The position numbers were made by a program, and so were the translations under genes. A stretch of DNA of 64,000 nucleotides from Amoebophrya sp. A120 (taxonomy: Eukaryota > Protista > Dinoflagellata). Where the stretch lies: assembly GCA_905178155.1 (NCBI GenBank), contig CAJINV010000001.1, positions 14,443,379-14,507,378 of the forward strand, read 5' to 3'. The number at the start of each line of letters is the position of its first letter. Position 1 is the stretch's first letter. Positions 22,172-60,614 of the stretch are shown here, in pieces. The notes under the pieces are model-generated. The model had not been told where the DNA came from and searched no databases. It saw nothing but the letters and a program-made list of their open reading frames with translations.

Positions 22172-23593
22172 GTTTTTGCTTGCGCGCGAAAAGTTGTAGA
22201 CTGCTTGGTTGCGGTTGCGACAAAAACTACTCTATCAGTTTCGAAGAAGAACAACTCAGCAAATAGGTGTACGTTAGAATAAAAAGGAAAGGGAAATTTC
22301 GCAAATAATGGGTCTCTCTAAGTATATGTGAATGGCTACCACATAATGTTGGGTTCTGCGGACTTTGATTGGTTCTGCCACGGGTAGACTACTTCGTAGT
22401 CTTAGAAGTGCATTTCTTTGTATTAACTCGCTAGTTGTAGTCCGAAAATTCACACAAAGCTGGTCCATTTCCAGATGTCAGGGTACGCGGTCGTCTCTGG
22501 CCTGCTCGTAGTCATGATCAGCACACATTCCTTCTACTTTGTTATGTTTGCAGTTGGACGCGTTTTTCCCCACGTATGATCTCTACCGAGAAGCTGCTAG
22601 CACCGGAAGAACATGTCCGAATAAAGCAACAGGTTTATTTGAACAGCTCTAAAGCTAAATTACCGACGAATTTCCGCTTTTGAAGAACACAAAACTAAAT
22701 GATGCGATGGAGTGTGAATGTCCTCAACCTCATGACTGCCCTGAGTCACACACTTTTTTTTGCTGCAACGCAGCGGACGTTGCGTCAGAAACTACGAGAT
22801 AAGTCAACAATTAGAGTGCCGGATAGACAAGAAACAATCACACTTGTATATTCCTCGATTATTTCTTTTGATTTTGCTTATTTCTATTAGTACTTTCTGT
22901 TTCTGCTCGTTAGATTTTCATCGTTCTCGAGAGTTCTATGGGTAGTACATTTGTGTTCGTCTAAGTACACTAAGTGTAGCAAAAAAAGTTCAATAATAAG
23001 GAGCTGTATGTATGTCTTGTGCGTTAGCAATGATTTCTATCCAAAAAAATCTCGAAACTACATAAACTGATGGGCAAGAACAGGAGGCGAGAACGTCCTC
23101 GGCCAACTGTGTGGTCCATGAGAAATGAAAAGTGAAAAGTACAAGTATGAGCACAAAGGACTGAAAATGGTCATAGAGCTACAGCGAAACACCACGCATA
23201 GCTAAAAGTATGTCAGTCGTCGTGTGTGCCCTCTTTATTCCCAATAAAATTCTCGACTTGCTAATGGTAATGCTATGAAAGTAGAAGATTCGTTCTTGTA
23301 CGTACAAATTTTTTATATGTATATCGGCAGTGTTCCTATGTGTTCATCACGACACGACCTCACCATTTTCTATGTGCGAACTTGATGAAAAGTTCTCGAA
23401 AGAACCCGACGAAATTCCGTCCATGGGTTCTTGTAGTGTACCGAGTCTTCGTGATGTTGATCGTAGTGGCGGTTGTAGAAGCACACTTTAGTTCAGCATG
23501 CGTTACACTTTGTGTGTAGAGATACAGAGTAAAAGATGGCGATAAAGCATCAGTACAGAAAAAGAAGGCTAGAGACACTTGCTATCGATCTGC

Positions 23594-38500: not shown

Positions 38501-41500
38501 CACCCAGCATGTTCTTGTCATACAGAATCAAAATGAACAATCACAATGAAACCCCTAACAGCTCCTCGTAGAGCCCTGTCATCTTCCGCCAACAAGTGAA
38601 ACATCAATGGCGACGAGGTGCCCAGGGCCCCTGGAGGTGGGAAATGAGGGTGGCACCTATAGCCGACCATACCAACTGATCGACCAGAAACCAACTGACC
38701 ATGCAAAATCAAAAAGTGGACCTTCTCCCCTGGAAGTAGCAACTCACGCCACACTACCGCTACCCACTCCGAAGAGCAGGCAAACCGCCGAGCTCTCCCT
38801 GATTCCGAGCACATCGGCAGGGAGGTCGCGCGGGGCGCTAGAGGTGACGGTGACTCTCGATGGTGGCACCCTGTAAAATTCAGTCAGAGACCACACAGGA
38901 CATTCCAAAAGTGGAAACAAAACAATGAACAATGTCATGCACAAAGTGGCCGGGGATGGACGTTTTCTTGCGGATATCACGTGGAAGGTCAAAAGTTCCT
39001 CAAAGTGGTAGGGGAGGCCGTCGTACAGTGCCTCTCTTTTAAGCTCGTGCAGCAAAGGGGACGTCTTAGTCTCACGCGGGATATCGGACGCTGTTATAGT
39101 GGCCGACGCGATCGACTGAATCGCTGCGAGTGCGGCATCGACGATGTATTTATGGACCGTGTCCAGTGGGTGCAAAACCACCGACGCCCGGTCGACGCTG
39201 TGAGAAGCCACGACTTCATGCGCTCGCCGGGCCCGGGCTTTTGATTTTGTGGGTGTGCCAGCCGAATGTTGCTGCGTATTAGAAGCAGGGGGAAGATTCA
39301 AGAGGTTTCGCAGTGTTAGTGCGGAGAGTTCATTCCGCCATGCCTTGAGGCGTTCGCGGGAGGCATTTGGAGTTTGCTCCTCGAGGACGCGGTCACCTGC
39401 TACGGGATCTTGCCCATGTTGGAGTTGGTGTAGCTGACCTGCTCCACCTTGCTCCCGGCCCATTTTTTTCTGCTGCGCCTTCTCTTCCGGAGACAAGCTG
39501 GGATTTTTCCGAAGCTGTACCTGAGCACGTGCGGCCACGGGAAGAAACCCGAGGTAAAAAGCGATTGCACGTAATTCTTCCTGGTACAGACGATAAACGA
39601 ACACCTGATCTGCGAGGCTCATGACCAACTCCTGCAACGTGACAGTGATAGTGACTCGGGTTGTTACGTTGGGAGCCGGAGCCCCCCGCTCAACAAATTC
39701 GTACTCCTGGGCATCGGCGGTGCTGGCCTGGGGAAGATTATTCTTCTTATTCAACGCAAGGGCGTCTTTCTCGAGCAGGCGCCGCAGTTGCACCACGTCT
39801 GCAGGCTGCAGGGCTTCATGCACGTCGCGGTCCTCCGCCACAATCATAGTCGTCAGGTCGTCGAGGAATAGGCCTGTCGCGAGCTCCTTGTTGATTTCCA
39901 TTTCGCCCTTCGCAGTGCCGGTGCCAGAAGTCGTGGGAATAGCATCTGCCTCCTGCCTTACAGCGTAGTGAAACAATCTATGAAGCTTCTCGACGTCAGC
40001 ACCCGCTCCGCTGGCAGCAACCGAGCGGTCGAAGTGAGCACTAAACCGCTCAAAAATTTCCGCAAAAAACGGAAAAGTGACCTGAACATCCTTCGTGATT
40101 GCGTGGAAACTGTGACTTCTCGGGGCGCCCTGGATGCTGCCGTGAAAGTGGCTGCACGCAAAGAACAGGTCTTTACGGTCTTGGTGCCATTTGCTCTCCG
40201 CTGCAAGTGCTGAAGGCGCTGCCGCTACTGCGGCCGCGGCCGAGGATGAAGACGTACCTCCGAGAACAAGATCCCCTCCCCCTGGAGCGGAAACTGCAAA
40301 AGTCATTTTCAGTGACATTGCTGGATTCGGATGAATCATGGAAATCATGTTTTCAAACAAGTTGCCATTGCGATTGAGATCACCGAGGATCTGCCCGACG
40401 CGTTTTGACAACGTGTCGATGAAGTGCATTTCCAGATCTTTGTGAAATGTTGTTGTGATAATCGCGGTGCCGCGCGGACTTCGACCTCCGCCCAGGAATC
40501 CTGTGTCGCCGAGCTGGGCACTGGCCGACTTCCGCCTGTCCGTTCGCGACTTCGCGACTTCCACGAGCCAGGATGCTCTTTCTTCCTCTGTCTTGGCGTA
40601 CCGGTTCGCGACCTGATTGAACACCAACTTCGCAAACTGTTCGCCATCCTCAGAGTTCTTATCCGCGAGGTCGAGCAGGGAGGACAGGAAAAGCTCGTGG
40701 GAGCGCGAGAGTGCTTGCTTCTGCGTTACTCTCGCTGCAGCAGTTGCAGTGCTTCCGTGGAATCCTCCGACCCCACGCATGTGCCGCGATTTTCGGGCTG
40801 CACTCGCGCCAGATACCGAGGTTTGGCTCATCTGCGCCATTAGCGCTGCTTGCTGACCGGCGTTCTGGAGAAATCCTGTTTCACTCATTTCGACAACTGC
40901 GCCGTGTAGGACCTGCTGTAGCAACGACGTGAGCAATTTGGGTTCGCCAGTAGCCAGAATGCTGTCGCGAAGGACGCGAGACATGGTGCGTTTCTGGATC
41001 AGAGTCTTGAGGCTGGGCAAGATCTGCCCGTCGGTCACGGTAACGTGTTCGCTCCGAATGGTAGCATCGTCCAGGTGTGCGACTCGCCAGCCGTTTGGCT
41101 GCACCACGTAGGGGACTGCGGCGCTGTCTCCAGCGGCCCCCGTCAACTGGATCAGAAACACGATAGAGGTGTCCAGAGGGATGTTTTCACGTCTCCAAGA
41201 CTGTTCCAAGATCGAAGGCCTCTCGACACGGTCGTCCCCCCGCAGGTGGCCCGTCGCAGGGCCACTCCGAAAAGACGCGGCGGAGCCGCTCACGCGTTGG
41301 CTACCGACCACAGAACTTCTTCTTGCCGGGGGCACGTATTGTCTGCTGCTCGGAAGACCATCTGACGCAACGCTGGCTTCGTCGAAAGAAGAAGCACTAC
41401 GTCCCCGGCCAAAATGCATTTCCTCCGAAGCAGGCGCATCGGCATTCCTCTCTTGGAAAAATCGCTCGAGATCGGCGCCGAGGGTATGGCGCGCGGACTC

Positions 41501-44500
41501 AATCAGGTGCGCGGTGTCAGGATCGGCTTTAAGCAGAAGCACATGGCGCTTTGATTTCAGAGTGTGCGCTGTGGCTCCTGCTTCGGTAGAACGACCGTGT
41601 GCGGTCCTCCCCTCGGGGGCCGCGGCTTGAACTAGTTTACGCAGGTCCTCCGCATGCTTCTCCTGGGAATCCCGCAGAAACACCTGCAAGATGTGCGACA
41701 GATCGGCGGCCGCGCGCACCTCTCGGAGGCTTCGCAAGTCGACGCGTAGCTGCTTCAGGCCCGCGAGGCTGCCAACATAATTTGGATTTAGGGCACTGGA
41801 GAAAGTGGTGATTTGCACACGCTGCAGATTGATCCGCGTTGGTGCCCCGTTTCCCGCGTCGCTAGCGTCAGACCCTCGACGACCGTGCAAGCGGCCCGTG
41901 CTCCCGCTGGTGCCCACGGAAGAACTTGGTGTCGTCGCTTCTGAAGCAGAGGCTGTGTCGCTGGGTTCTTGAGTGAGACCTTTACTAGAAGGGCCGAAGC
42001 GCACACTGTGCGTGCTGACCCAGGACGCCGCCGTGTCGTGCTCATCAAGGGGCGCCAGAAGAAAATCCGCCAGAGTGCGTTTGTCTTCCGCTTTCTCGGG
42101 GTCGCCAAAGTACGTCCGATACAATGCGAGTTTCAAGCTATTCGGATTGGTCAGTGCAACTCGAGAGTTCCCAGAAGTTGCTGACTGTTCCATCGGCCAC
42201 CAACGATCGGGGCGGGACGCCTTTAGGCAGTCGTGGTAATTAAGCAGTTCTATCGCTGCATCGGGGTAAACGGTTTCAAAGAGCCGCTTCATCGAGCTAT
42301 CCGCAGCTGCGCTTTGCACGCGCTGGTCCTGCTGCGCGACCCCCAGTCTACCGCTCTGCGTGGTTAGCTCTTCCATAGCTAGTAACGCCAACGTCTCGTC
42401 CTCGGAGAAGTGCACGAACTTCAGAGGCCCGTTCATGAACTTTAAAGGCCCGATCTGTGGCAGTCCCAGCTGACTGAATCTCATCTGTTTGAGAGTGGTG
42501 CGAACGTTTTTCTCCTCATTAGAAAGTAGATCCTCGGGGGAGAGTGCGTACTTTTCCATGCGGTTCAGCAGTGGTGTATCTAGCAACTGGGGCTCTGGTT
42601 CCAGAATTACCAGCTTCGCCGTGCTTGCCACCTGCACTTTCGCGTGATCATTTCCCAAACCCAGGTTCACGTACTTTTGGCCGGCGAAGACTGTGTAGTA
42701 CTGGTTGAGTGCGTCATACACCGCTTCGTAAATCTTCGCAGCGTTTACCAACACAACCACTTCGCCAGATTCGAGTCCGTGCTTGACTTTATCAATGCAG
42801 CGATTCAGGAACGCAAGAGACCCATCTTCCGGAAAGCTACTCCCAAAGACGAGCGCGACCTCCTTCCCGAGGATGCCCTTCGTCTGCAACACGTTGACCA
42901 AGCCCAGACCGCCAGTGCTTCTGCCGCGAGGTAGCAGCAGCGGGTAGCGCACCGGGTTTTTACCGTCAGGGTCGGCCTGCGACAGGTTATCTTTCAGAAG
43001 CACGTCGATCGTAAGCGCATCTATGTGCTCTCGTAACCGCTCCTTCCCGCTCTTGGCCTGCGCCGCACCCTCCGCGGCCGCAGCAACTGCACCCCCAGCG
43101 GCAGGCTCGATACCGAGGTAGGGGAGTAGCCGCTCCTGTGCCGTTTTCTGCAGTTCAGCCGAGATCCCCCCGAAGTTTCGCTTTACACAATATGCCAGCG
43201 CTGCGAGCTTCGCTTCGTGCAGAATTTCAGGCGTGACATTCGACGCACTGTTCGCGCGATGCCATTCGTCCGCCCGCTGGTCCAGCATTTTCAGAAAAGA
43301 ATAAAAGTCCCGCAGCCCGTACGACGTGCTCACGTCGCGCTCCTCGGGCTCTGCCCCGCCTCGGTGGGCCGCGCCGGCATCGGCACCAGCATCGCTGCCG
43401 GCATCCTCATCGTCCTCTGTGTCCTCCCCGTCGCCGACCTGCTCAACCGCGCCGACCACGGCCCGATACCCGTCAACAATGGACAGGATGACTTGCTCGC
43501 GCTCGGTGCGCGTACCCGGCTGGTCGTTCGGATCGGTGCGCGAGGCGCCGAAAAGGAGGCTGCCCTCGTGCCGAAAGATGGCCCGGCCGGTGCGAATCAT
43601 CTCCTCGCGGTTCAGCTCCTCGCGCATGACCAGAATCGCGCGGTTCATCTTGGCCGGATCCAGGTTCCAGTTCGACAGACCCATGAACGCCACCTTGTCG
43701 GTGATTTGCTGGCCGAAGTGCCCGTCTGGCGAGATCCCGGTCTCGAGTAGCGGGTGCAGTGCTTTCAAGGGGAGGTGCTGGCTCTCCTCCGCCAGTCCCA
43801 CCTCGTCCAGCACCACCACGGCGATCTCCTTGCGAAGTTCTGCCCGCGTCAGACGGTCCAGCTCCACCCCTTGCAGTGGCGTCGTGCTCCCGGACGACCC
43901 TCGAGCGGCCCCCTCGGGGGCTTGTAGTTGCTTGCTGTCCTTTTCCTCTTTCAAACGACGCTCGTGTGCCCTCCGAACCTCGTTCACCCTTTTCTGAACC
44001 AGTTGATGCTGTACCTTGCTGGCCTTTTGGAAAATATCGAGTATCGACTTTGCCGTGGAGTGAGGAGAGCACTGGTTCGTTTGGAAGGCCGTTCGCCCGA
44101 AGTCCTCGTCTCGTCGGAACAGCGGGACCGGCGAGGAGCTGCCGATCATCACGTCCTGCACGATCGCTTTGCCCAACGATTTGGAGCTGCCGGGCTTCCC
44201 AACGATGAATACCGGGATGCGCAGCTGCGCGCACACAGCGAGCAGCATTACGTTCTCCAACAGCGCTTCGTTGGGCGCAAGGCGGCGCTCCCTCAGGTAA
44301 TCGGCCAGGTCTGCCTTGAAAACTTCTTTCAGAGCGCCCGACGCGCGCTCGAATTCCTCCCGCTCGCCAGGTTCAAAAATGCTGTTCCTGGCCAGGAACT
44401 GGATGCGCTTGCGGACCGGGAGACTGAGGAAATACGCGAAGTACATGCCCAACGGGAGCGCGTCGTTCACCACTTGGCCAGCCTTGGCGAAGCCGCGGTC

Positions 44501-47500
44501 CGTACCGCGCAACTGAATCACGTTGTTTTCTACTCCTGGTCCCAGCACGGGGGCAGTTGTACCATCAGGTTGCGCGGCTACGCCGACACCAGCATCTGCA
44601 GCTGCGTCCACTTGCGGCGGAGGTTGTTGCGGTTCTGCTTGTTCCTCGTCAACATCCATGGCGTCAGGTCGTGGCCCAGCAGCAGCTGCAGTCGATGGCA
44701 TGCGGGGATGCGCAGACAACGTGCGGAACTGTTCGAAGTACTTGTGACTCAAGTAGGACGTCGGAGACTGCAGTCGCTCAGCAAAGAAAGCCACGATATC
44801 CATCAAACGCTCGACATCACGGAGACTCACGGCCCTCAGCTCCGTCCGATTTCCGCCCTCGGCATTGGGATCCTTCCCCCGGATAAACAGGTGCACATTT
44901 ATCACCTGATTCAAGATCCTGCGGGTCGCTACCTGTTCGACGGCAAATGTGTACAAAATCCGCCGCAGCAAAACCGCTGATTTTCTGTTGTTGGCATGAC
45001 CGTCTTGCCAGTTGAAACAAAGCTCGCGACGGTCCAGGTCCGGGTACGGAATGTTGACACCGCCAACAGGAATTGTGCCTTGTTGTGCAGTTTCAAGTCC
45101 CACTGAAGCTGCGCCAACTTCCGAGTTCTGGCCTGCGGAAGAGGCGCTGGCCGACGGGGAACCTGGTGGAGGCGGTCTCCTGAACTGCAATTGCTCGTGC
45201 AAGACGCTGCTCCCTAGCTCCTGGATCTTCGCGGCGACGTGGTCTTCGAAAATCTTGAAATCGTTTCGAAAACAGTTGAACATGTCCGAAAGACTTTGCC
45301 GCAGGGTGGCTGGGATGAGACGGATCTTGCTAGGATCACTTTCCATGGTCTCCACCGCGCCCGCCTCGTCATCCGGATGTTCTACCAGCTGCTCCGCCCC
45401 TTCGCCGGCAGCAATAGCATCTGCACGCAAAGCGGGACCCTGGTCGTGGTTGACGACGGCGGCAGCATGATTGCCGGCGCCGTCCGCCCCCTCACCAGCT
45501 CCTTGGCTCCCAGCAGCTGCGCGTATCACAGAAGACGAAGCCGCTGCCGCTCCCCTCTTTACATAGTACCTTTCATCGCGGAAGTTACGCAGTTCCCTCG
45601 CAAGCGCAGCTTTCAAATTGATCTCTGCTTCTTGATCAGCAGGGTCCACCGCCGCGCCGGCTTCTTGTCCTCCACGCTCCTCCGGAACTGCGGCAGCTCC
45701 ATCGTCTGGTTGCTCTGCCACTGGAGCCGCAGGAGCGTCGCCGACGACATCCTCTGAATCTACCGACGCAAAAACTTCGCGCTCCAGAGCACGGAGTATC
45801 TTTTCTCCTTTGTCATACTTTTCCCGTAATGTCTGCACTGAGGCCACCTTATCGCGCCACACTTCCTCAGGCTCCAGCTCTATATGTACGGCTGCTGCAG
45901 GACTAGCACGACGACTGGCAACATGAGCGACAGGAACGCTCTGCTCTCCTATGTTGCTTCCCGAAGGCAGAGTCGTGTGGGCGGGTCGCTCATGCAGCAT
46001 AGCTTGTATGCGCTTTAGCACAATTTGGCGAGCGTAGTCGGCTTCGGTATCTTCCGGGAGAGAACCAAACTCGAAAATGCTGTCACGCAGAGACGGGGGC
46101 GTCCGCACGACGCGATATACCAGGTCGCGCATCGGGCGGTCACGGGTAGCAGGACTGTCCTGTGGCAAGTCGTTGCCGTCCACGGCTTCCGCGGCGTGCC
46201 GGTACCCCAATCCGGCACGGTGCATCTGTTTTCGCGCCGCCGCCGGTTGCACTCGGTACGGGTTGCAGGCCATCGCGAGCAGCAGGCGAAAAGGGTACGG
46301 TGTCCCGGTCAAGCCATGGGGGTCTTCAAACTCAACGCCTTCCAATTCGCTGCGGAGGTCACGGCCATGAAGACGCCCGTTCGTCATCAGTTCCTTTAGT
46401 CCCCAGACGACATCTCGGGAAGTATTGGCCTCGTCGAAGAACAGCAAAGTCTGGCGCACGCCTCTTCTCGCGTTGTCTCTTGCCAGTTGCAGTGCTTCCC
46501 GCACATAGCCGTTTAGCGCTGCACGATCGACACCCCCATGCACTTTCACAGTTCGCATCAATTTGAGTCCGTCCTCATTCCTTCTTTCCTGGCTTGATGG
46601 ATTCCAGCTGTTCAGCTGCTGCCTCACTTTTGCGTAGTACTCGAGCAGTGCGGTTTTCCCAATTCCGGTTTCGCCAGATATGAACACGGGTAGTCCAGCG
46701 GAAAAGCGCATGTGGATCGCAATGATTTTTTGGCAGACATCCCGCGACAAAACAAATGCAGGGTCGGGATCTTCGAGGTTTTTTGGAATTCCAGCGTTGT
46801 GCTCCCACAAAATCTTGCGTAGAAACCCTAACAGCTCGTCGTGCGACGCGTTTTCAATGTGATTCCCCAAGAAAGAACCGGGCGCCCCGGGTTCAATATT
46901 TGTCGGAAATAAGAAATTCAAACTCGCCCTGGGGTTCGGTTGTTCGGGTGGGGGCGCGAGCACTTGCAAACTGACAAGGCGCGCAACGGCATCTTCGACA
47001 TCAAGTTTTAGCCCCTGCTCTGTCTCGTTGAGGTGGCCCTCCATTTGTCCACCTTGTTCAGCTTGCCAGCGAAAAAGAAAATCCGTGACCTGTGCCACAT
47101 CGGTGCTGTAGTTATAGATTTCGAAAACACCAGCAATGTTAGGTATTAGCAGTGGGGCAGCCTTCTCACACCAGGTGCGTAAGCGTATACGCATCTGCGG
47201 GTCGGCATCCGCGGCTCCGCCCTCGCCCGCCGCGGCAACCGCATTTTGCAGGGCAATTGCAGCAGTAGCGTCTTGTTGCTGTTCATGATTCACTTCCCGC
47301 TGACCATTCAGTCCCATGTACTGTGCGTTAATCCAATTGAGCAGATCTAACCCTATGGCACCGTGCCCGTGCATCAGTTTCTCCTTTTCCCAGTGTGGTT
47401 CACCCGGGGCCGGTCTGCCGCGCACTGGAATAACAATCTGCTCCGATTGCGAAGATTCACCATCACGGATGACTTTGAAATGAAATCCGAAATGAATCAA

Positions 47501-50500
47501 CGACTGGTCCCGCGTAGGCAACAGGTACGGGTGTGCCCGCTCCTCCCACCCGCGGCGGCTGCGGCCAGCTGCGGGAAGGGCGCCTGCTGCTGCGCCGCCG
47601 CCCTCAAACTCTTCCACAATTACGCGACTAGGAGTGGCGAAGTCGATTGCGGCCAGTCGGGCCCTCTCCATCGTAAAGCGCTTGAAGCGATGCGCCTGCC
47701 GAATGTGTCCGCCTTCATTGCTTGGGTCCGTCCAGGAAATCATATACGGGTCCACCGCTTTTCGCAGATCCCTATCAAGTCGCGCGATGAGCTGCACGAA
47801 AGACACCAACACCATCCAGGACGGGTTGTCCTGCTCACTCAGGGCAATGATTCTCCGAAGCGCGTCTACATCCCGCAAGTGTAGGTCATTCCCCGCGATA
47901 CCGATAGCATCACGTCGTCCCTTTCGCGGTTTCCACCAATCCGGAAGTTTCGTCGCGGACTTGTCATACCAAAATTCTTTGAACGCCTCCTCTCCAGGAT
48001 CTTCATTGTTCCTGCCACGGTCGGGGAGACGCGCCGCAAACCAGGCCGCTTGGCGCCAAACCTTGTTTGTGTCTGCCTGCCGGTCTTGTGCGGTTTGATT
48101 CTCATCGGGATCAGGGGGCGTTTCGCCGCGGATGGCTGCCAGCTGTATGTCCAGCATCATGATCATCTTGACATCGGTATTAGACTTCTTCATGGCCTCG
48201 AAATTTTCCACCACAGCCCACGGCGATGGCACATCAAAAACGTGAAGGTGTCTCGCGAACGACAAGCGGTTGTGCATCACCCAACGATTGCTGGACTCGA
48301 CGTAGAGCCGATCTCTGTCACCGAAACGCCAGACACGGTCGCGAGCATCGGTCCAACGACGCAGAACTACGAGCTTGAAAAGCAGCTCATTGAGAAGCGT
48401 GTGCGAGAAGGGAATGCCCGCGCCAATATCCAAATGCAAGGACACGTAGAAGTTTTGATTTTCCAGTTCCGGGCGTGGTTCGTTTCGTCCCACCTTCTTC
48501 TTGTCGGCTTTGCCGCTGCCCCCCGCAAGAACTACATGATCTGCGATTTCGTCCAGAACGCGGGCGCAGAGACTGTCTTCCGTAGGGGGAGAGTAGATTG
48601 GGATGTTGATTCGCAGCTGTTTCGCATGCACCCGGTCCTTGTCTTCGCGCTGGAGCATTGCGACCATCCACGATTTGCCACCTCCGGGCTCCTCGCTAAA
48701 CACAGCTCGAGCGGCCTGGTCCCCCTCTTGTCGCGCGGGCTCGAAAACTTGCCGATCGAGGTAGAGGGGGTGGTCGCGCGTGGCGTCGTCCGGAAGCAAA
48801 TCGGCCGCATTCTCGACGATGCGATCCTCAAAGTGTGCCAGGAGGTTGCTTGTTTTTCGTCCATTGGGATGCGAGTGGATTACAAGAAGCGTTTCGGAAA
48901 AGTTGCTCTCGCTTGCTCGATGTAGTTCTGTGGCATGATCGGAGGTCGCTGCAAGAACATGACTAGTTTTAGCGTCTGCATTCGCCTCCATAGCTTCATC
49001 GTCAACACCCGCAGTAAACGTTTCCTCGATGTGCTGTTCCATGCGACCTTCGCTGCTCGTCGTGCTCGTGCCGGCTTTGAGGTAGAGCACATGGCGCAAG
49101 TTCAAATACAGTTTCGTTGTGGCAACGGCGACTTCGTAAGACAGGCGCTCAACATTCAGCAAAAAGAACAGCGCGGTTCGATCGTGCTTGTTCTTTGAGT
49201 GCGCAGCAGCTGCGGACGTCATGAAGACCCTGCGCAGAAAAAGCTCCAGCTCCGCAGCCGTCGTGCTTGGCGAGCAGAAGAACACGTTGGCGGATCCCAA
49301 CTGCTGGAGACGAGCCTGTCGTGCGAGAGAAGTGACGAACTCGAGCGGTTCGGCGGCGAGTATGACCCTCGCCCAGAACCGGTGCGCTCTAGTACGGTGG
49401 TCCTGGCTCAGGCCGCTGCCCACACTGTCTGAATTCGAGTTCGACTCGCCAGCATCCGCACGCATGAGCAGGGCGGCGGCGTCAAATTCCTCTACATCAC
49501 GAACTTCGTCGAACTCATACCCATCTGGAAGGGGAAGGAGATCTGATCCCCCAGCAGGGGCAGCTCCATCGGCGCGGTCTACATCCAAATGATTCAACAA
49601 AGCACGCAGAACAGCCGGAAGCTTTTGGACGGACAGGCCCCCACTTTCCACGTCAATGCTATTTTTGGATCCGTCAAAGTCAACGAGCCGAGTGTGTACA
49701 GCACGCGGTGCGGCGTCAGACTGCGTGCCGATGCGCTGATCCCGGTGTTCGTCAGCATGAGGGCGGCTGGAGTTCCGACTTGTTGCCGACGGCGGCGCTG
49801 CAGATGTCGTGATAGATAACTTTTTCTCCTCGGTCCAACGGCGCAATATTCCTTTTGCGAGGGACCCGAACACCTCCTCCACGTGTTCCGTCGTGTACGG
49901 TGCCTCACCGTTGTCAAACGAGACAGTGGTGGACCCATCGGAACATTGCTGTGCTGAGCCCGTGACCGCATCACGAACAGCTGCTCCAGGTGTTGAGTAG
50001 AGAGGTGCATGATCTAGATCTACTTCGGCATCCGCCATGTGAACGTCGCCACCGTGCTCGTCCTGCTCCTGACCAGCAACCATAATATCGTGCTGAAAGT
50101 CCTCCTCTTCTTCATCCTCGGCAGAATCATCCTCGTGAAGATCTGCTACTTATGAAATGCAAAAGCATCGCACTTCTAGTAGAAATCGCATTTACAAACT
50201 GGCTCGGAAATTGGAAATGCGGAGATCTGCCTTGATTGCCAGATCTGTACTGTATGGCCACGATTACTACGAGTGCGATAGTACTTTTGCAGTGCATATT
50301 ATTCTTGCTCCTCGTCGTGCGGAACGACAGGAGCCGAAGTCTTGGGTCTGCAGGGAGTATTCCGGTGCGTTTATCAGGTCAAGAACGGTTTCTTGGTCGT
50401 GCCGGAAGGATTCGAACTGCGCAGCACTAACATCCGCAGCGAGCGGGTGCACGTTGCCTCTTCTGTCCAGAAAACGGCTAAGAGCGTCCTCCTCACTCTC

Positions 50501-53500
50501 GAGCAGCCAGGCCACACGACGCCGCATGAGCGGATTTGCCCGCATGGCCGGAATCAGTCGAGCCAGATCGAGTAGCTGCAGGGTCGTAAACCGGCTGAGT
50601 ACTTCCGGAAATTCCCGGCGCGCTGTCTTGAACTCGCTTTCCCACACTTGCTCCACCTGGTTTCGTATCCAAGAAAAAAACTGTGCTAGTGTAAGTCTTT
50701 TGGGAAAACTGCATCACAAGTTTGTCTGCCATGACAGGAAAAGCTTGTTATGCGCAGATAGGAAGGAAAACACCTAGGAAGGGAGCCGATCAGGCATGTT
50801 GAGAATGACAAATGTAACTGTTTTGCATTTTCTGCATCACAGATTTACACTTACACAGTTTTTTTTTTGCATATTTCGCAGCCCGCGTTTAATGGTCCGC
50901 AGAAGCGGCAGCAGCGTCTCGTGAGATCTGGCACTGAAAAAGATGCTAGAGCGGGTATCCAAGGGTTCGTCTGGGAGAGCACCTCCCTCATGTTCAGCCT
51001 GTTGGAGCCGCGCCCGCGCATCCTCCATATCTTTGTAAGTCTGTAGACTAAATTCATCCTGAGCTGCAGGCGGGTCGTGGTTCCCGACTTCCAGCTGCCG
51101 AAAGTGCAGCTGGACTTTGTACGACCTCCAGTGCCCCCCGCTGTTGTTCCTCGCAGCCTCTCCGCGTGCAGCACCTCCCGCATGAATTGCGTTCTTGCCC
51201 GCACTGCGAACGCCAGACTTCTCTCTGGGGCCAGGCGGAGATGGGTCTGGTCCTACCTCAACTACTACGTCGTAAAACAGAGGGATTTGAAAGTCGTTCC
51301 GCAGCCGCCGCAGCTGTTCCCCCAGCGCGCGCAGCTCCTCAAACATGGTATTGAAGGCACGCAGCTGGCTCTGCTTGTCATTCGTGCTTGCGACAAACTG
51401 CACCTTTTCCCACAAGCTGCGCAACTCGGCAGGCGAAAACCTCTTTGCCGGTTGGGCAGGCCTATTTTCCGCCCCCTTCGAAGTTCCTGCTTTTCCGCTT
51501 GTTGCTCCTTTCACGGTGGTTGGACCGTCCCCGTCTTCCGCTGCTTGAAGACGCGGGAGAAAAGCCGATGGAAGGTAACATGCGTCCTCATCACTTTTAT
51601 TCTCCAAGTTGTCTGCGTGCAGCATTTTCGTAGTGGGCAAGACCGAAGACGGTGCGCTGCTGGACGCCGACGCGTTCGCTAGAGCTGATGAAGACCTCGC
51701 TTGTAGCGATGCAGCAGCCCCCGCCGGTCCGTTCTTCTGCACCGTGGGCCGCGGCGCACAGGTAAGCGTAAACACACCATGCGAGAGGAGACTTACAACC
51801 ATGTCCGAGGTTTTGACCTCTGAGGTGGTCGTCTTGTTATCAACCAAATTACGGAACCACACCTCGTTTTGCAAGCCCTCCTCGATCTTTTGCACCAGGC
51901 GTACGTCCTTTGATTCAAAAGGGAGCTCGTTAAACAGCTGCGCGACGAAAACCGGCTTACGTTTGTTCTCACGCAGAAAATTGACCAGTGGCGTTAACTC
52001 CACGAAAAGCGTTTTGAAGGTGTCGATTTTTTGCACGGCAAAGGAGCTCTCCTCGCCTTCCAGCGCCACCTCGACCATTTTCTGAACTTCGCTTTCGCTG
52101 AGTTTTTCGTTCGCATCTTTCAGTAACCACTCAATCAACCCGGAGCTGCTGATCACCTTCTCGTAAACCTGCAGCAGCGACAGTGACGCTCGCACTCTTC
52201 GCAGCAATTTGGCCAGGAGTTCCCAGCAGGCGGGCTTGTTCCCGTCGTCACTGATTTCCGTCGCTACGCTTGCGCTTGGGCTTCCTGTGCCTGTGAAGAC
52301 TCTTCTCGTCCTCCTCATGATCTCCATATTCCTTTTGCTTTGCTCAAACAGGTCGTTGCTGGCTGGTCGGGTGTCGTCGTAGCCATACTCATCTTCTCTC
52401 GTCAGGTCGTCTGGAATGTCCATAGAGTCGCCGTTTCGCTCGACCAGAGAGTATGTCGTCCACGGGTAAACGAAACGGTAGTGGTCTGCGATAGTGAGGC
52501 GGCTCTCAAACGCCAGTAGTAAATTACTGTCTTCAACAAGCTCCCTGGGTTCTTCACCTGCTTCTTGGTCGACTTGCATAGCGTCTGCATCTCCACCTGT
52601 TTCTCCTGCGGGCGAGGATTCGGGAAGCTGGCCTGCCCGTGGACGAGCGACGAGTGGCAGACTGGGCTGAAGATCGCAGCCGGCCGCTTTTTTGATGCTT
52701 CCTTTAGTACGTGCAACAAAATTTTCAATTTGTGGCAGGAGCTTTTCGCGAGCCTCTTCCAGGTTTTGCTGCACCAGCGCAAGTTCATCGAGGAACTGCA
52801 CAAGCGGGGAATCCTGCAGCAAACTTTCCAATGCGGCGGTCGTAAGTGTCGACTCGGCGCGCTGCTCTTCTGCCATCCTTTGCCAGTCCAAAGCAGCCAC
52901 GCGACCAGTTGCATTGTTCAATTGCTGCTCTCCTGCTCTACTTCGGTCGAAATTTGCGTCTTTTGTCCTAAAGTAAACAAAGAGCGCTAAGTGCTTGCGG
53001 ACGAGTTTCCGGGTGCCTGCATCGGGTGCTGCACCACTGGTTGGCGTCGTGCTACCGGTCGAGCCAGAAGGTCCCTGAGAGGTGGCAAGTGCCGACGAGG
53101 CCAACAGATTGATGTGAGCGACCGGGAAAGATCCGTCCACCAGCCGGTGAAAGAAGTTCGCTATGATCTGCCGATCGCCACGGACGGCTTCCTCGAGCTC
53201 CTGCAACTTCTGGCCGTTCTTCACCAGGGCATAAAAGCTCGCTAGGGACTCCAACGCAATAGCGAGAACATCTTCCTCGAGCACGGGGTGCGCGATTTGG
53301 CTTCCTCGAAGAGCAGGAGAATTTTGCCCACCGAGACCCAGCTCGCGGATTTTTGCAGCAAGGGAGCGCCGCTCGAGAATGCTGTGCCGCAGCGGATTCC
53401 AGTGTGTTACAAAAGCCTGCTGCAATTCGCGGCGGCGTTCCGGTTCTATGTTGCCAGGCTCCGGGCGATCAATATCCAGGGCTTGCAAAACCGATACAAA

Positions 53501-56500
53501 TTTGATTTGCTCACTTTCTTCCGGGATTTCCGGAAATCCCAAAAGCTTGTCCCGCAAGCCGTTGGCTGCGGCCATGGCGCGGGCCTCTTCTAGGGCATTC
53601 CTTTTCTTGATGGCACTTCCTGCGTCCCGTCCATCAGCGCCTCCGTCGGGTCGTGTCCAATACGAAAAGTCTGGGGCGTACAAAGTGCCTCTGAGTAATT
53701 GATCCGCTGCGGCCGACCGCCTCTTCCACACATTGTTGGCGAAATTTTCCTCTTTACGACCTGCACAGACTCTCTTGATGGGGGCAAACGAAGGTCGCCC
53801 GACCTCCTCCCAATAGCTATTCACGGAAGCTACAAAGCCCAGCAGTACCTGCAGTTTGTGTTCAGGCGTCTCGAGCACGGGTGTGCGTTGTACGTCCAGC
53901 ACCTGCACCCAATCTTTCTCAACAGTCCGCTCCGGCAGGTCATGGGAAGACGGTCCAAAATTGTCGAGTTCCTCCGAAAAGACAGCGCTGCCCAAAAAGT
54001 CGCAAACCTTCTTGAGCTCAACCCCAGCCCAGTTTTGCCTGCGCTCTCGTGGTTTCATTAGTAGAGGCTGCACACCATTCGTCTCGTCGCGTTGTTCAGC
54101 ATCCGCTCCATCTCCATTCAACTCCCCCTGGCGGCCCTGGTCCGAAGCTAGAGTACCGGCCGATGTGGTGTAAAATTGCGAGAGGTACAGCAATCGGTGC
54201 TGTGCGGCGATGAAAGAGGCTGCAGCGGTTTGCTGCCCCGCAGCCGGAGGCACCCAAACACCGAGGAACCGGCCCAACAGGCGTTCCCATGCGGCGCGGA
54301 ACAGGATGGAGAATAAGCGGGCTTCCTCGTCAACAACCTCGTAACCGTACAGGGCCCCGGCCTCCGCCAGATAGGACATAGCGTCCTGCAGAAGGTTCTC
54401 CAAGTGCGAATAGGTCGTAGAGGCGCCATTGACGGAACTGCTTGTCCTTTCAGCTAAAACATTTTCCGCCGCCGGGGGAACAAGTGCGTCCTGAATCATG
54501 GCCACGGCGCAAGTAGTGCGGTCGCCGAGCAGCAGTTGCCCCGCGTACAGATCATGAAAGGCACCAGCAAGGAAGAACTCTAAAATGCTGTGACTCAGCC
54601 GGCTCTCAGCCAGTTCTTGGAACGGGTGACGTCGCCCCGCAGACAAGATCGGGCCCCTCTCAGCGCGGCGCCGGCGCAAAAGCTGTAACTTGCGGACGAC
54701 TCCGGCGAGTATGTCCTCAACAAAACGCTCGCGCTCCGGTCCCGCGCTCATCAATGCGAGCCGAGTCGTCAAGTGCTGCAAAAATACCGACATGGCGGCA
54801 GCGCTGCGCTGCACCGGAAACCTACGATCCGCTTCGGTCTCGACTTTCTCGTCTGTGTCCATGTGATCTTCTTCATCCGCGCCGCGGGGCACGGGCAACA
54901 GTTCGGCTAGCGTCTCTGAGTCAATGTACGTCACAAACAGGCCCAAGGCCCACGCGTTTGTCACAACCGGCCCCGGCTGCTCTTGTTCTTGAGGGTCCCA
55001 TCTATTTCCTTGGTGCCGTTGGGAAACCTGCTCGGACTGATCTTCCTGCAGCTCGCCACTTCCAGAGGACAGCTGCGCGATTTGCCTCTTTGCTTCCCGT
55101 AGCAAGAACTTGCGCGCGTTTTGGTGAGACTGGACACTTGCGTCTTTCGTGCGCAGTAAGCCACACACACTCTGATCAATCTTGCAGAGCAGGTCGAACT
55201 CATTGTGCTGGTCGGAGCGGAGATAGGGAACGGCCGGGTCGAGCAGGACGTTGCCCTGCCCACCTCCCCAGCCTGAAATGACCACCCCGGACCGGTTTCT
55301 CCAAAACATTCTACGGCTATCAGGTATTGGACCCATGATTCTTTCCATAACCCCCATGTCGCTCGAATCACCTTCAATTTCGACCGGACCGCGCTGCCCA
55401 GCATTGTAGAGCGTGTGGTGCCCTTTCTCTCCCGTACCTCGTTCGCTCCACAGGCGCTGGGTGCAGAACTGCACGAAGAGTTCATGATCATCATGCCCAA
55501 CGAGATTCAACACAGAAAAACCTGAGTCCGAGATCGAGCGCTCCAAGGCCGGCCCTAAATATCTGTTTGCAAGTTTCGTACGCTGAAAGTGTCCTCCCTC
55601 CTTAATCTGAAACAACACTTCGTTGTCCGGCTTTTGTCGATGAAGGCGGTCGTGATTTCCAAAGACTGGCTATGAAAAAGAAAAGCGTCGTCCCCTCGCC
55701 GACAGTACCTCTTACAACCGAAGCAAATAAGTACTAAACGCTTCGTCCCATGATGCGAAATTCACCCATCAGACATCACTTTACTACGTCGTGCTCGTGT
55801 TGCGATTGCATCAACGAGCAACTACACAAATTTGTGAGGCAGAAGATTCGCGTTGCAAATATCTAGGAGAACACGAATGGCGGGGCGTTTCATGCGAAAG
55901 CTGCTGCTAGGTACGCCCGAAAGACGTCACTGCAATGGCATCATAGTGCTGCCTTCCTTGCAAAACAAAATTTCCCCGTTGGAAATTTTGCAACAAGGAA
56001 GTCATGTCATCTCGTCTTATTTTTACTCTTCTGGACATGGTTCCTCGCTTTTCTGTTTGATACGCCCATCGAATCGGGCAGAAAAGTGGAGCCGAAGGAG
56101 TCGAACGGGTGCAGAAAAGTCTCCAATATCTGATAGAGCACAAGGGCCCGCAGGTATCCAAAGTTACTTCGCTGTCGCGCGTCGTTGTCCTCTTCGATTT
56201 TGTACCCGCGCGGGCGGGGCTTGCTGTCAATCGCAGCCCTGTCGAAATACATTTCGTGCCCCCCCGCCATATCAGTCGGAAACCGGAGGAGGCAATCCTC
56301 TTTGTCCACGAGGAGGTCGCGCAGCTGGACGGCAAATTTTCTGCCACTGTGATTCCAAATCATACTGACTGCTTTTGCCTCCGAATCCGTGTTATCATCC
56401 ACGTCCCCGAAACTATTTCTTGCGAACACGCACTCGTTACTTCGGTCTGCGACCAACGCATGCGCCGCACCGATGGTTGAAGACAGGTCTTCGTAGTACT

Positions 56501-58569
56501 GCTCCGATGGCGTTATGAGACCATGACGGCCATCGACGTCACGATTGCCCTCAGCAAGGGCAAGTGGTCCTGCAGCTGTGCCGCCAGTTCTTCGACTAAC
56601 TAGAGTATCGTGCACGGGCGGAACAAACAACTTCGCGAGACGCAGCTGCCAGCCTCCTTCTAGATCCGGCTGCATCAATCCTGCATCCACATAGGAGTCT
56701 TTACCCGCTGTTCCTGCCTTCAACTTCCCCCATGCATCGACTGTAAATGAGCGACGACCATGTAGCAAACGCTCATGGACACTCACCTGAAGTTGATTTA
56801 CAATGACAATGTTGAATGTACTAAAACTAATGAGGAACGTGAATGTATGTAAGTATGAAGATCAACAGGAGCCGCATTGATATGATCGTATAATAAACAG
56901 TTCCTAATTATGCTAATATAACTACCGGGTTCTGGCTCTTCAAATCGTCAGCGGGATCTACCAGCCATTCGTAAGTGTATGTAACGTCGGGCTGGAGACC
57001 GGATATAGGAACTCGCAGCAGGAGCGCAATATCCTTGACGCCGCTTCCGTCATCAAATCCGTTCGCGTTGCGGACCGCGACGTTGTGATAGTCTCGGAGC
57101 CTCAGTGTGTACGCCTGACACAAGTCGTCCGGCATTTCTGCGGAGCCCTGATCTGAGTTGCCAGCTCCAAGCACTCTTTGGACAGCACTTCGGCCGAGGT
57201 TCTTCAAGCCAGCGACCCACCCCTCATCCATTGGGGGCCGCGGGTGGTCTTTGACGCAAACGCGCAGACGCACGCGGCCAGGACTTGGCTTCCCGGCGGG
57301 GCCAACTTCATCCAGCTGGTGGCGCTGCGAACTTGCGAACCACCCGTCAAAACCCGCTCGATTGAGCGGCCAAACCGGATCGTACATAAGAATGCCAGTC
57401 AGGGTCACCGAGTGCCTTCCCGGCCGCCCGGCACCCCCGATGGTCAGCGGACCTTCGGTATCGGGCAGGGCGGTGCTCGCGGAGGACGCATGCCGTTCAG
57501 CATCACCTTCGCGTGGGAAACGCTGGTCGTCGGGTTGCGTTTGCTTCGTTAGCGAACCCTTTACTTTGTTTGTTTTGCCTGCCGCGTTGTCCGACGGCTT
57601 CATTTTGTTGCTGATCCCGGGTGCCGGCTGCTGGGGGAGAGGATTCTGGGACGAAGAGGATGCAGATTTGGAGTAGCCCGGAGGATGATGTCGTCCTGGC
57701 ATGTTCCCTGCCTTGTCTGCTGGTCGGGTACTACGGCTATGCGCAACTTGTGGGGGCTGCGTCTGCGCCGGCAAAGGCCCTTCTTTGACATTCTGGAACG
57801 TTGCCCCCGAACCCGAGCCTCGATCTTGCCCACTGGTAGACACAGCATCCCTGGTGTCGGCGGCGCCCCTCGCGGGCGGATCGAATTTCTGAGTGCTGTA
57901 ACGTGTTCTAGTTGGCTCTACCACAGGGACTGCTTCCCCAGCACTGAATGCTAATTCAGCAGGGTGGCTGCTCCCCAAATAATTGCCCGAAAAATCTTGC
58001 TTGCCGGAACCTGGGAGCCCCAGGGACTCGTTTCCCGGAATGGAAGTATAGAATTTCTTGTTTCCCGACCCCGAGAGTGAACTTGCAGAAGGTGGTGGAG
58101 GTGGAGGTACCGAGACCGGTACCCGTCCTGGAGGAAATCCTGCATTCGGAATGCCAGGCGGCACTGTACTACCCGACGCGAAAGGCGCGAACTTCATCGC
58201 AGGTGGCTTAGCAAACACGCCTACTGCTGGCCGAAAAGCAGGCCCGCTCCCACTGGTGGTGCCGCCGGGAGTGGATGGAGCAGCAACGGACCCCGGCAGC
58301 AGCCCCCGTGCGCCAGACCTTGGGTTTCCGGTCACTCCGCGCCCACCTTCATTGCTACCGGCCGCTCCGGACCCACGACCACCATTAGCGCGCGACCCGG
58401 TCGTTTTCAACGCGTTAGCTCCTGTGGATAAGCCCAAACTACATCCGGCGATAATCACCACCAAGCCAGCGCGCAGCATGGCCGAGGGACCCTTTCCTTT
58501 CGTGCTCCGAATCATCGTCGCAGCTTGTCCAGCTTCCTTGGTACTAGGGATAGCAGAATTAGGATACAT
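23594..58569 (-). CDS. Giant RNF213/mysterin-like AAA+ ATPase with RZ-finger E3 module; 12 exons, ~10,376 aa
   Basis: One GT-AG intron (56787-56925) and ten introners (55671-56062, 50666-50873, 50151-50298, 38477-38976, 37864-38033, 35964-36226, 34770-34990, 34468-34644, 27277-28661, 25278-25466). The 3,845 nt removed leave a 31,131-nt CDS with an open frame across all junctions. RNF213 signatures occur in order: FCSPSTTAAELELFLRR, ERLSYEV, PGGGKS, LHLDI, DPDPAFVL...MRFSAGLPVFISGETGIGKT, VKVHGG, FFDEANT, ACNPYR, LVYRV, VSLRDVER, IPVFIVGKPGSSKSL, QCSPHST, VVVLDEVGLAE..PLKALHPLLE, SNWNLDPAKMNR, GLRDFYS, RNFGG, FGSSFP, YDALNQYY, LLNRMEK and QITTFS. The start could be Met at 58569, 58515 or 58479. 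Confidence 0.82.
25278..25466. mobile_element. Introner family C (189 bp)
   Basis: Ends TATGCATTGCAAAAGT / ACTTTTGCAATTCATA. An offset direct repeat TCGTG, 197 nt apart, restores the frame (DDH|DDPDAD). Confidence 0.8.
26680..26880 (-). repeat. Coding tandem repeat, 3 units of 75-78 bp (SDAYSDGSGRHSNDDAxAEAEAE)
   Basis: Near-identical units start at ~26681, 26759 and 26834 within an exon of the giant gene. Confidence 0.9.
27277..28661. mobile_element. Family-C-like introner (1,385 bp) with a nested inverted-repeat element (~27396-28590)
   Basis: Outer ends TATGCACTGCAAAAATATCG / CGATACTTTTTCACAAGATA. Removing 1,390 nt restores the frame. Inner ~65-bp inverted repeat GCTATC..AAGAAAAAGTGTTGACGTTACGG..AGTTTTTTGGAAAAAA. 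Internal AAAACCGTCAACGCCTCATCTAG motif repeated in both orientations. Confidence 0.8.
34468..34644. mobile_element. Introner family C (177 bp)
   Basis: Ends TATGAACTGCAAAAGTTGTATCGTG / TACGATACTTTTCTTGCACAGGATA. Eroded TSD AGCAG/GCCAG. Removing 182 nt restores the frame. Confidence 0.82.
34770..34990. mobile_element. Introner family B (221 bp)
   Basis: Left end TATCCAGGAAAAAACACCCATCCCCATCCA is identical to the TIR of the 7901-8012 element. Perfect TSD CCAGT. Removal gives RLYW|WGPRR. Confidence 0.92.
35343..35455 (-). other. RZ (RNF213-ZNFX1) finger-like motif
   Basis: FRHIFCRRIQRVSACGGLGRDQGACGVCGKRIGGGHG fits the C-terminal part of the RZ consensus (xCG-x7/8-CxxC-x3-IGGxxH). It lies downstream of the AAA core, as in RNF213. 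Confidence 0.72.
35964..36226. mobile_element. Introner (263 bp)
   Basis: TIR TATGCATTGCAAATA / TATCCAATGCAAATA. Perfect TSD TGTTC. Removal gives SQLN|TLWDI. Confidence 0.88.
37864..38033. mobile_element. Diverged family-B introner (170 bp)
   Basis: Ends CATCCAGAAAAAAACACTTAGCCCCAT / ATGGGGATGCGTATTTTTTTGTTGATA. Perfect TSD CTCGA. Removal gives TELR|AKDGH. Confidence 0.87.
38477..38976. mobile_element. Diverged family-B introner (500 bp)
   Basis: Degenerate family-B ends. TSD TCACC/TCACG. Removal gives TFHV|TRMES. Confidence 0.8.
42550..49300 (-). other. Dynein-like multi-AAA core of the RNF213-like protein
   Basis: AAA2-type P-loop PGGGKS at ~48671-48690. AAA3 Walker A GETGIGKT at ~46652-46675 and Walker B FFDE at ~46430-46445. 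AAA4 Walker A GKPGSSKS at ~44177-44200 and Walker B VLDE at ~43800-43815. Confidence 0.9.
50151..50298. mobile_element. Introner family C (148 bp)
   Basis: Ends TATGAAATGCAAAAGCATCGCAC / GTGCGATAGTACTTTTGCAGTGCATA. Eroded TSD CTACT/TTATT. Removing 153 nt removes a stop and keeps the frame. Confidence 0.83.
50666..50873. mobile_element. Introner (208 bp)
   Basis: 33-bp TIR TATCCAAGAAAAAAACTGTGCTAGTGTAAGTCT / TATGCAAAAAAAAAACTGTGTAAGTGTAAATCT. Perfect TSD TTTCG. Removal gives GLRN|QVEQV. Confidence 0.92.
55671..56062. mobile_element. Old introner (392 bp)
   Basis: TIR TATGAAAAAGAAAAGCG / TATCAAACAGAAAAGCG. TSD eroded (CTGGC/CGCCC). Removing 397 nt restores the frame. Confidence 0.72.
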
Positions 58570-60614
58570 GTAGAAAATCAAAGTGAAATCGAGAGATAGT
58601 AGTCGAATAAAACCAGACGGATTATATACTCTTCTTGTTCTGTCTTCCCCCAACGCAAAAGCGGCCAAGTGATAAACAGACCAAGTGAAGACGTCAATAG
58701 TTTCTTCGGTGTTGTGGCCGACAGTAGAAACGAGACGTTAAGGTTGGAGTCGCAGAAAAATAAATGCTGTACACAATAGCTTAGAGCTAGTCCGTAAAAA
58801 TAAGTGTTGTGTAGTAAAGTCTTCTCCCGATTCAGTAATATCACTACAAAGTTACAGTGTAAACCTTTACACGTGGTAACCAGAGTGACTACTTTGATTT
58901 GTGGTAGCACCAAGACCAAATTGGAATTGAGAGAAATCAACGACTCAGTTGTAAAACGAAGCTACTACTGTTCTCATGCGCACAAATACCTTAGCGGCAA
59001 ATAGCGGAATGAAGTGCCTCCGTCTAGTAAATTTTTCCCGGCTGAACGAGTCTGAGGTTAACTTATTTGAAGCCAGCTTGCTTCCTCTGTCAAAATTTCA
59101 GCGCGAATACTATGTTCACACGTTCTTGTGCAAGTCATAAGGATGACCTTTCCTAATCCTAGTGCTAGAAGTTGTTGCGCCAGGAACTACTGCAATTCTA
59201 AGGCAAACACGTCCGGTGTAGCATGGTGCTTTGAACTAAATATTCGTTAAGCTTAGCTTGTACTCGTCGTTCGTCTTTTTGTTCGTTGTCCTTGTCTATA
59301 GGGAATACTAGAGTTACAGTCGTATTTCATTGATTACGGATCGTCCTAATCGAAAAAAAATCACGATATCACATCTCACCCCAGTAGTACGAGAACGTTT
59401 TCGGAGTTGCGTCTAATTGGATTGCTCACGCTCGCATACAGACCTAGATCTAGATCGAATGCCGAGGAAGAAAACAAAAATAACGGATCCACCAGGTTGT
59501 GTCCCAGGAGGGATCACTTGGCACTTCGTTCTTCACGGTCTATCGATACTAGGATCACAAGTACTCGGACTGCACCTCTATGTGAAAATTGATGAGATCC
59601 GTTGTTCTTCTATGTCGTCTAAGTGCTGTTCTACTAACTTCCACAGGCAATGATGAGATCCGTGAAGATCGTAGCATGATGCTCCGCGCCCGCGCGATCA
59701 GAAAACACTCAAAGTTTGAGTCCAAATGGTGCAGCAAACAAGATCTCTTTTTTTAGTTGCAAAAGCACCTCGTACACCGTCCCTGGGGGAACAAGGAGTA
59801 GCGAAAGAAGCACAGATCCTCACGGGCTGTTGCTGTAGCCTCCAAAATCTTCAGGGTATCATTGATCAACGACAAAATGATATCGTCCTCCATTACAAAT
59901 GGCAATGACTTGTCTAATTCGAAAATATGATGGACTCCTCCATTGATTTTGTAGATTCATTTTCAAAAGCCCATCTCTAAGAACAGCAAAAGATATACGT
60001 TTTTTCGTGTTGCGACATCGCGTCCAGGAGAACCTAGCTTATGAATGCAGAAGTCCCACCTGGCAGAAGGAGGAGACAGAGTCCCGCCCTCCGGTCGTCA
60101 CATGCAGTATGCTTTGTGCAACCGTGCCTCGAACCTGTCGTAGTAGAATTTGGACTGCGGCGGCCGAATTCTGCTATACTTGTTTGCCATTGCAGCGCGG
60201 TATAGGGCCCCGGGGCGACAGCTACTAGTACTTCGCCCCCGAAACAACGATTTCTTGCCCATTTCCACAGTCACGAACTGCGGGGCGTGGCCCCACGTAA
60301 GCTCCACGTGCTGCATATCCTGTGTAAGACAAGCCTTGCCACCACGATCCCGAGTTCTTCTTCTTCTTCTTCTGCACAAGAAATTGCTTCAAGTTCAAAA
60401 GCAAACATCATACGCGTATAATTGACAAACTCTGGGATCGGGGTGGTTACGTTTTTACACAGGATACAACAACCGGTGCCCGAATTCGTAGTACAGGAGA
60501 TCCAGGCACTATCACTGGAAAACACCAAGTGTGGCGTCACTGTGGGTGTGAACTTGTATTCATAACATGCAGAACAGGCTTCACTTTCAGTTTGTCTTGT
60601 TAGAAGAATGAAAC

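Follow-up and report, generated by a model that had tools for sequence, protein, structure and literature searches.

RNF213, an enzyme of the host cytosol, places a coat of ubiquitin on bacteria and on parasite vacuoles. The ROP and FIKK kinases of apicomplexan parasites are signal-bearing effectors from cytosolic enzyme families, and exported proteins can have recessed signals. Here we describe an RNF213-like gene on the minus strand of a 64,000-nucleotide stretch (the window) of the genome of the dinoflagellate parasite Amoebophrya sp. A120 (contig CAJINV010000001.1, positions 14,443,379 to 14,507,378). The predicted protein resembles mammalian RNF213 (mysterin) in having a disordered N-terminus, a stalk, a dynein-like AAA core with two full Walker A/B sets and an E3 half with an RZ-like motif, as these are described for the mammalian protein in PMC7311170 and PMC11549300, but it is about twice as long and has a signal-like leader. 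As far as the sequence goes, this leader is real, unusual and partly conserved in a homologue (L001), and the RNF213-like gene that bears it is genuine and very large. Since chance would produce such a leader only rarely and the homologue appears to retain it, entry of the protein into the secretory pathway deserves serious consideration; secretion is plausible, though not proven.

The original prediction placed a tripartite peptide, MLRAGLVVIIAGCSLGLSTGANA-LK, at the N-terminus of the protein. The peptide is indeed present on the minus strand, from the ATG at 58479 to an A-N-A end at 58411. Its N-terminal position is less secure: the pattern is real, but the methionine from which it was read is the third in-frame ATG and could serve as the start only if those at 58569 and 58515 were skipped. 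We refer to the three ATGs as M1 (58569), M2 (58515) and M3 (58479). The elements of this region are as follows.

58846..58894, minus strand: conserved upstream block with palindromic core GTGTAA-N4-TTACAC, candidate promoter or 5′ untranslated region element
58567..58569, minus strand: M1, first in-frame ATG, in weak context (TAC ATG) and unmatched in L001
58544..58545, minus strand: pyrimidine-rich AG between M1 and M2, candidate 3′ splice acceptor for a spliced leader or in cis
58471..58515, minus strand: basic n-region including M2, 15 residues, net charge +4, with M3 at 58479
58429..58470, minus strand: hydrophobic core AGLVVIIAGCSLGL
58411..58428, minus strand: c-region STGANA, of A-x-A type, with a predicted cut before the L at 58410
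56926..58410, minus strand: rest of exon 1, a basic, acid-poor segment rich in G, P and S, then a segment conserved in L001

Leaders were scored with a heuristic of our own, distinct from SignalP, which combines an 11-residue Kyte-Doolittle window, the charge of the n-region and an A-x-A motif. By this heuristic the leader looks like a cleavable signal: the n-region has a net charge of +4 when counted from M2 (+1 from M3), the best uncharged 11-residue window has a mean of 2.52, and A-N-A follows with small residues at -3 and -1. To pass the chance tests, a core of at least 2.5 and a basic n-region were required, the cut-off having been chosen post hoc at the observed value. Among 405 internal methionines of coding sequence, five reach the core threshold and none also has the basic n-region. 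Seven of the 637 ATG-open frames of the window pass both, two of them being M2 and M3 (thus 5/635 when these are excluded), and only M2 and M3 among the seven also have A-x-A. The leader pattern is therefore unusual and rarer than chance, its rarity being somewhat overstated by the post hoc threshold, and about 1% per start seems a reasonable estimate of the chance rate. The leader also holds the most hydrophobic exonic 19-mer among the scanned open reading frames (ORFs) of the gene. The first 100 residues after it are basic and acid-poor, with 10 K/R against 1 D/E. The segments following both leaders (58410-58111, minus strand, in the window; 3858-4050 in L001) are basic, that of the window being acid-poor as well, and the residue directly past the predicted cut is L in the window and F in L001.

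The open frame from 58737 to 56908 carries in-frame ATGs at M1, M2, M3 and 58197. We found that position -3 is a pyrimidine at M1 and a purine at M2 and M3, and that, from 58779 to M2, pyrimidine-rich AGs occur at just two places, 58545-58544 and 7 nucleotides downstream of it. When the DNA is aligned with L001, M2 and its upstream context fall on the L001 ATG at 3714, M1 and M3 having no ATG counterpart, and M2 outranks both M1 and M3 in comparisons with the L001 leader. Codon-usage scoring did not separate M1, M2 and M3. M2 is the likeliest start, giving a leader of 35 residues, because of the aligned L001 ATG, the -3 context and the acceptor AGs between M1 and M2. The start would fall at 58515 if the AG at 58545-58544 served as a splice acceptor, or if leaky scanning bypassed the weak M1. 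Spliced-leader trans-splicing is reported for 18.5% of the transcripts in A25 and 37.8% in A120 (PMC7789003). In probable-RNA contigs (X1 to X4, from one sample, their RNA origin being a guess), the upstream gene ends with poly(A) at 59847, and hence it appears to be separate and to supply no N-terminus.

A scan of metagenomes gave one homologue, L001, out of 132 candidate stretches; it shares 39% identity with the window gene over 1295 aligned columns, and the homology begins at exon 1 residue 228. The conserved upstream block lies about 330 nucleotides 5′ of M2 and is 80% identical to L001 positions 3229-3276 over 49 nucleotides (E 2.7e-6), a score reached by none of 200 dinucleotide shuffles, and its full palindrome is unique both within the window and within L001. 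Only 42% of the four-fold sites (85/201) are identical between the two genes. A 1-nucleotide indel and the palindromic core suggest that the block is probably non-coding, and it would be a candidate promoter element in an organism with poorly known promoters.

Read from the ATG at 3714, the L001 leader has an n-region of +5, an uncharged core of 1.67 and the cleavage-type sites S-G-A/F and V-S-A/F, and GANALKT of the window is aligned with its GVSAFKT. It occupies a short exon of its own, from which an in-frame GT-AG intron leads to the homologous exon. The phospholipase B family is normally secreted or lysosomal, and the leader of the phospholipase B in the window scores 1.73 by the same measure, close to the L001 core; 4 of the 405 internal methionines combine a core of 1.5 or more with a basic n-region. 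In an ATG-anchored ranking against the L001 leader, M2 stands third of 637 by protein and eighth of 637 by DNA, and in the reciprocal ranking the L001 leader is first of 67 by both. These rankings, and the location of the leader, flanked by the conserved block on its upstream side and by the conserved exon on the other, suggest that the two leaders are probably homologous. No part of L001 aligns with the roughly 190 disordered residues past the window leader, so this neighbouring segment appears to be less well kept than the leader. The leader thus appears to be shared by L001, in a similar and weaker form, but not by P0003, a more distant Amoebophrya relative (from AT5.2). The models of P0001, P0002 and P0005 in A120 start within the gene and therefore do not show the N-terminus.

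That the leader works as a cleavable signal peptide of the endoplasmic reticulum (ER) is the likeliest of the readings, one that we place slightly below even. The core would then serve as the target of the signal recognition particle, with A-N-A marking the site after which signal peptidase cuts. A number of results weigh against such a function. With L001 as the single homologue, selection for signal function cannot be demonstrated, and the L001 core, which includes Q, W and G, is weak. Leader-to-leader shuffle tests (p 0.04-0.14 overall) are non-significant for the local protein score (27, p ~0.13) and for DNA (p 0.06-0.09), a global protein test giving p 0.04 post hoc, and in a search of all six frames the local protein score does not stand out (p 0.96). 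The N-terminus of P0003 is acidic and without a hydrophobic core, and a signal-like leader is found in none of 49 full-length animal RNF213s, so the leader would be specific to this subfamily. Mammalian RNF213 is described as recruited from the cytosol to act on bacteria and parasite vacuoles (PMC11549300). There is no PEXEL, RRL or RxLR in the first 150 residues of the window protein or of L001, and a chain of ~1.1 megadaltons with ATPase modules would be a demanding secretory cargo. N-glycosylation sequons are near expectation (36 versus 42.5 expected) and uninformative. An alternative is a protein that starts at or near M2 and stays in the cytosol of the parasite, as other RNF213s do, the leader being unused, either as a chance stretch inherited by both homologues or as a peripheral membrane or lipid-binding patch. 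The leaderless relatives, the weak similarity of the leaders and the marginal L001 core are what such a protein would lead one to expect, and the retained Walker motifs and RZ-like Cys/His require cytosol-type chemistry. Yet the leader pattern is rare in both null sets, and the n/h/c order with a cleavage-type motif recurs in a homologue so diverged that neutral sites are nearly saturated, and we consider a cytosolic protein with an unused leader rather unlikely.

The start itself could be wrong: translation might begin at M1, with the core recessed by 34 residues, at 58197, without any leader, or in an unseen upstream exon, so that the hydrophobic stretch would be internal or untranslated. 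The 5′ end is read from sequence only, and introns of Amoebophrya are reported to be mostly non-canonical (PMC7789003), so that upstream exons can hide. A donor-like GT-GTAA lies within the conserved upstream block, may leave room for an upstream exon, and allows a GT-AG join to the main frame to be drawn in both genes; an acceptor-like CACAG is found at 58424, after the core. On the other side, M1 has a pyrimidine at -3 and no L001 counterpart, out-of-frame ATGs at 58385 and 58352 precede 58197, and no ATG is found in the frames upstream of the block, which differs by a 1-nucleotide indel between the genes and is best kept on the would-be intron side, as fits a non-coding element. A wrong start is, in our judgement, quite unlikely. 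The original prediction also allowed a membrane-anchored ligase, and this has lost ground. An uncleaved signal anchor tethering a cytosol-facing ligase to a parasite membrane would reconcile the hydrophobic N-terminus with cytosolic chemistry, but the best 19-mer has an insertion score of +2.6 kcal/mol in the window and +6.9 in L001, against -1.4 for a control transmembrane stretch of the window (Hessa scale, without positional terms). By the positive-inside rule, the charges of +4 before the core and +2 in the 15 residues after it would moreover put the C-terminus in the lumen, on the wrong side, and we regard an anchor as very improbable. If the leader is used at all, it should thus act as a cleavable signal, because the core is too polar to span the membrane and because of the charge bias.

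A cleavable signal would lead the protein into a compartment in which its predicted chemistry has no substrate, since the ER lumen is without ubiquitin and E2. Ubiquitin, E1 and E2 are found in the cytosol or nucleus, so that a secreted ligase could be of use only once released into the host, a weaker step than the cleavage itself. As the parasite grows in the host nucleus, the site of release would be the host nucleoplasm or cytosol; in A120, a vacuole-bound stage in the host cytoplasm is reported to be followed by trophonts that develop in the host nucleus (PMC9478091). The fuller proposal, that an RNF213-like subfamily of Amoebophrya gained a signal peptide and acts in the cytosol or nucleus of the host alga with host ATP and ubiquitin machinery, is unlikely as a whole. 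If true, a secreted RNF213 in a parasite of bloom-forming algae would reverse the defence role of the enzyme and make it a roughly megadalton effector, and it would offer a specific candidate in an organism for which most effectors are described as unknown (PMC6176090). Should the protein prove cytosolic, the locus still defines an RNF213 subfamily that is unannotated and of doubled size.

Two kinds of described leader are similar to that of the window protein. Secreted effectors of apicomplexans, such as the ROP and FIKK kinases, are alike in a long basic n-region, a short core, a disordered segment and diverged paralogues; the window protein differs in lacking PEXEL/RRL and in being a far larger cargo. 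Bipartite signal-plus-transit leaders of complex plastids are alike in the F or L past the predicted cut and in the basic, acid-poor segment, but the plastid of Amoebophrya is reported to be lost (PMC7789003), and low-complexity composition can mimic the pattern.

The gene downstream of the leader was assembled into the following parts, of which the exon 1-3 junctions are inferred from the sequence and the L001 homologue.

56787..56925, minus strand: intron 1, GT-AG, 139 nucleotides, phase 0; in L001 (5401-5820) at the same position, with the same phase and splice-site letters
56064..56786, minus strand: exon 2, aligns to L001
55670..56063, minus strand: intron 2, GT-AG, 394 nucleotides, phase 0; L001 has a continuous ORF across the junction
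50855..55669, minus strand: exon 3, its 3′ part resembling the end of the RNF213 stalk
50854-50657, minus strand: intron 3, in-frame GT-AG, joining exons 3 and 4
50329..50656, minus strand: exon 4 (3′ end approximate), RNF213 motif preceding the AAA core
38978..50142, minus strand: exon 5 (ends approximate), dynein-like AAA core
35345..35446, minus strand: RZ-like finger with putative catalytic Cys (35410) and terminal His
23594..38475, minus strand: remaining 3′ exons to the stop codon; the A120 protein P0002 is collinear down to 23600, its residue 5072/5073

In this model the leader exon is linked in frame through a canonical intron, as had been proposed: the 139-nucleotide GT-AG intron joins exons 1 and 2, and exons 1-3 form 2395 codons without a stop. 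The whole product would have about 10,200 residues (the codons sum to 10,168). The probable-RNA contigs touch the gene at 57519-57736 (one contig of 218 nucleotides) and 42813-42963, the sole other contacts being repeat matches around intron 3 and 32 matching nucleotides close to the exon 4 end; no contig reaches 58400-58569 or crosses a junction, which speaks neither for nor against the model. Intron 3 contains a repeated element (50666-50873) with 90-99% identity to many unrelated contigs, despite the GT-AG ends of the intron. In L001 the equivalent of exon 1 is split by two extra interruptions (4765-5304) that are not in the window. Two other gene models were rejected. Exons 1-3 might have formed a separate secreted gene, but RNF213 stalk motifs stand at the end of exon 3, and its join to exon 4 keeps the frame; a short intron excising just the core was discarded, since removal of the candidate GT-to-CACAG spans would cause a frameshift or introduce a stop.

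The attribution to a real RNF213-like gene is upheld by the AAA core, the stalk profile matches and the collinear P0002. Searches with exon 5 gave matches to animal RNF213 of about E 1e-90; its Walker A motifs lie at 46675 and 44200 and its Walker B motifs at 46435 and 43807, and all seven core motif patterns tested are present, including both Walker A/B sets. Stalk profiles built from 83 animal RNF213s were searched among 970 targets: the end of exon 3 was matched at E 0.003 and 0.033, P0003 being the sole other match, and exon 4 was the best window match of the motif profile (E 0.02-0.03). The matches on exons 3 and 4 are collinear and in the right order, but weak, and a fourth, more N-terminal profile had no match among the same targets. 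A single-sequence fold of the 3′ part of exon 1 gave a mean pLDDT (a per-residue confidence score) of 35.6. Taken together, the protein is likely an RNF213-like AAA-ATPase and a predicted ubiquitin ligase. In mouse RNF213, catalysis is described as confined to AAA3 and AAA4 (PMC7311170).

The window protein departs from the mammalian one in its altered first RZ ligands and in showing no detected RING or CBM20, the latter a domain that lies close to the N-terminus in RNF213. The first two ligands of its RZ-like finger are H-x2-C, versus C-x3-H in animals, and P0001 and P0002 have the same arrangement. Scored with the animal RZ profile, this finger reaches E 0.8, with two antisense ORFs scoring higher, no Pfam match was found for it, and a search of the RZ exon against PDB sequences gave nothing useful; a catalytic role for the Cys and a role for the terminal His are what we take these residues to have. 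No RING was found by pattern in the minus-strand ORFs of the window or by Pfam in 17 ORFs, searches that an intron-split RING would escape, and an animal-derived CBM20 profile had no match in the window gene or in P0003.

P0001 and P0002 share 29-49% identity with the window protein in long segments across the whole 3′ half, with one 40-residue piece at 78%, and they look like recent duplicates. P0003 keeps the stalk motifs and differs by its leaderless, acidic N-terminus. These comparisons suggest that the RNF213-like family is expanded in A120 and that its 5′ halves appear to be unannotated. Further searches, which covered proteins of up to 6650 residues, gave no third homologue. Exon 1 residues 330-545 matched none of 1093 candidates among proteins of 955-2725 residues, a search of 1.84 billion representatives with the initial 1200 residues of exon 3 gave no match, and the AAA core gave no new Amoebophrya protein of 3501-5000 residues among the best 120 of 521 matches. 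Viral contigs held no homologue, and single-exon products from the four starts were absent from the protein collection searched. We found no literature treating RNF213 together with Amoebophrya in a search largely confined to journals outside subscription.

The upstream gene (61378-59847, minus strand) is expressed, to judge from the probable-RNA contigs, and its main ORF has no Pfam match. It has non-GT-AG introns at 60753-60504 and 60466-60311, of a kind described for Amoebophrya (PMC7789003). Four other genes in the window have the same orientation as the RNF213-like gene: the phospholipase B mentioned above (1485-3902, minus strand), whose signal-like leader is weak, a WW/IQ protein (16320-16955, minus strand), an HD-domain protein with a C-terminal transmembrane stretch (18481-19503, minus strand) and an NADH:flavin oxidoreductase (20972-22231, minus strand). 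Between the first two of these, at 11000-13600, lies a GC-rich island (65-69%) with dense overlapping ORFs, which is unlike its surroundings and is possibly a repeat or mobile element.

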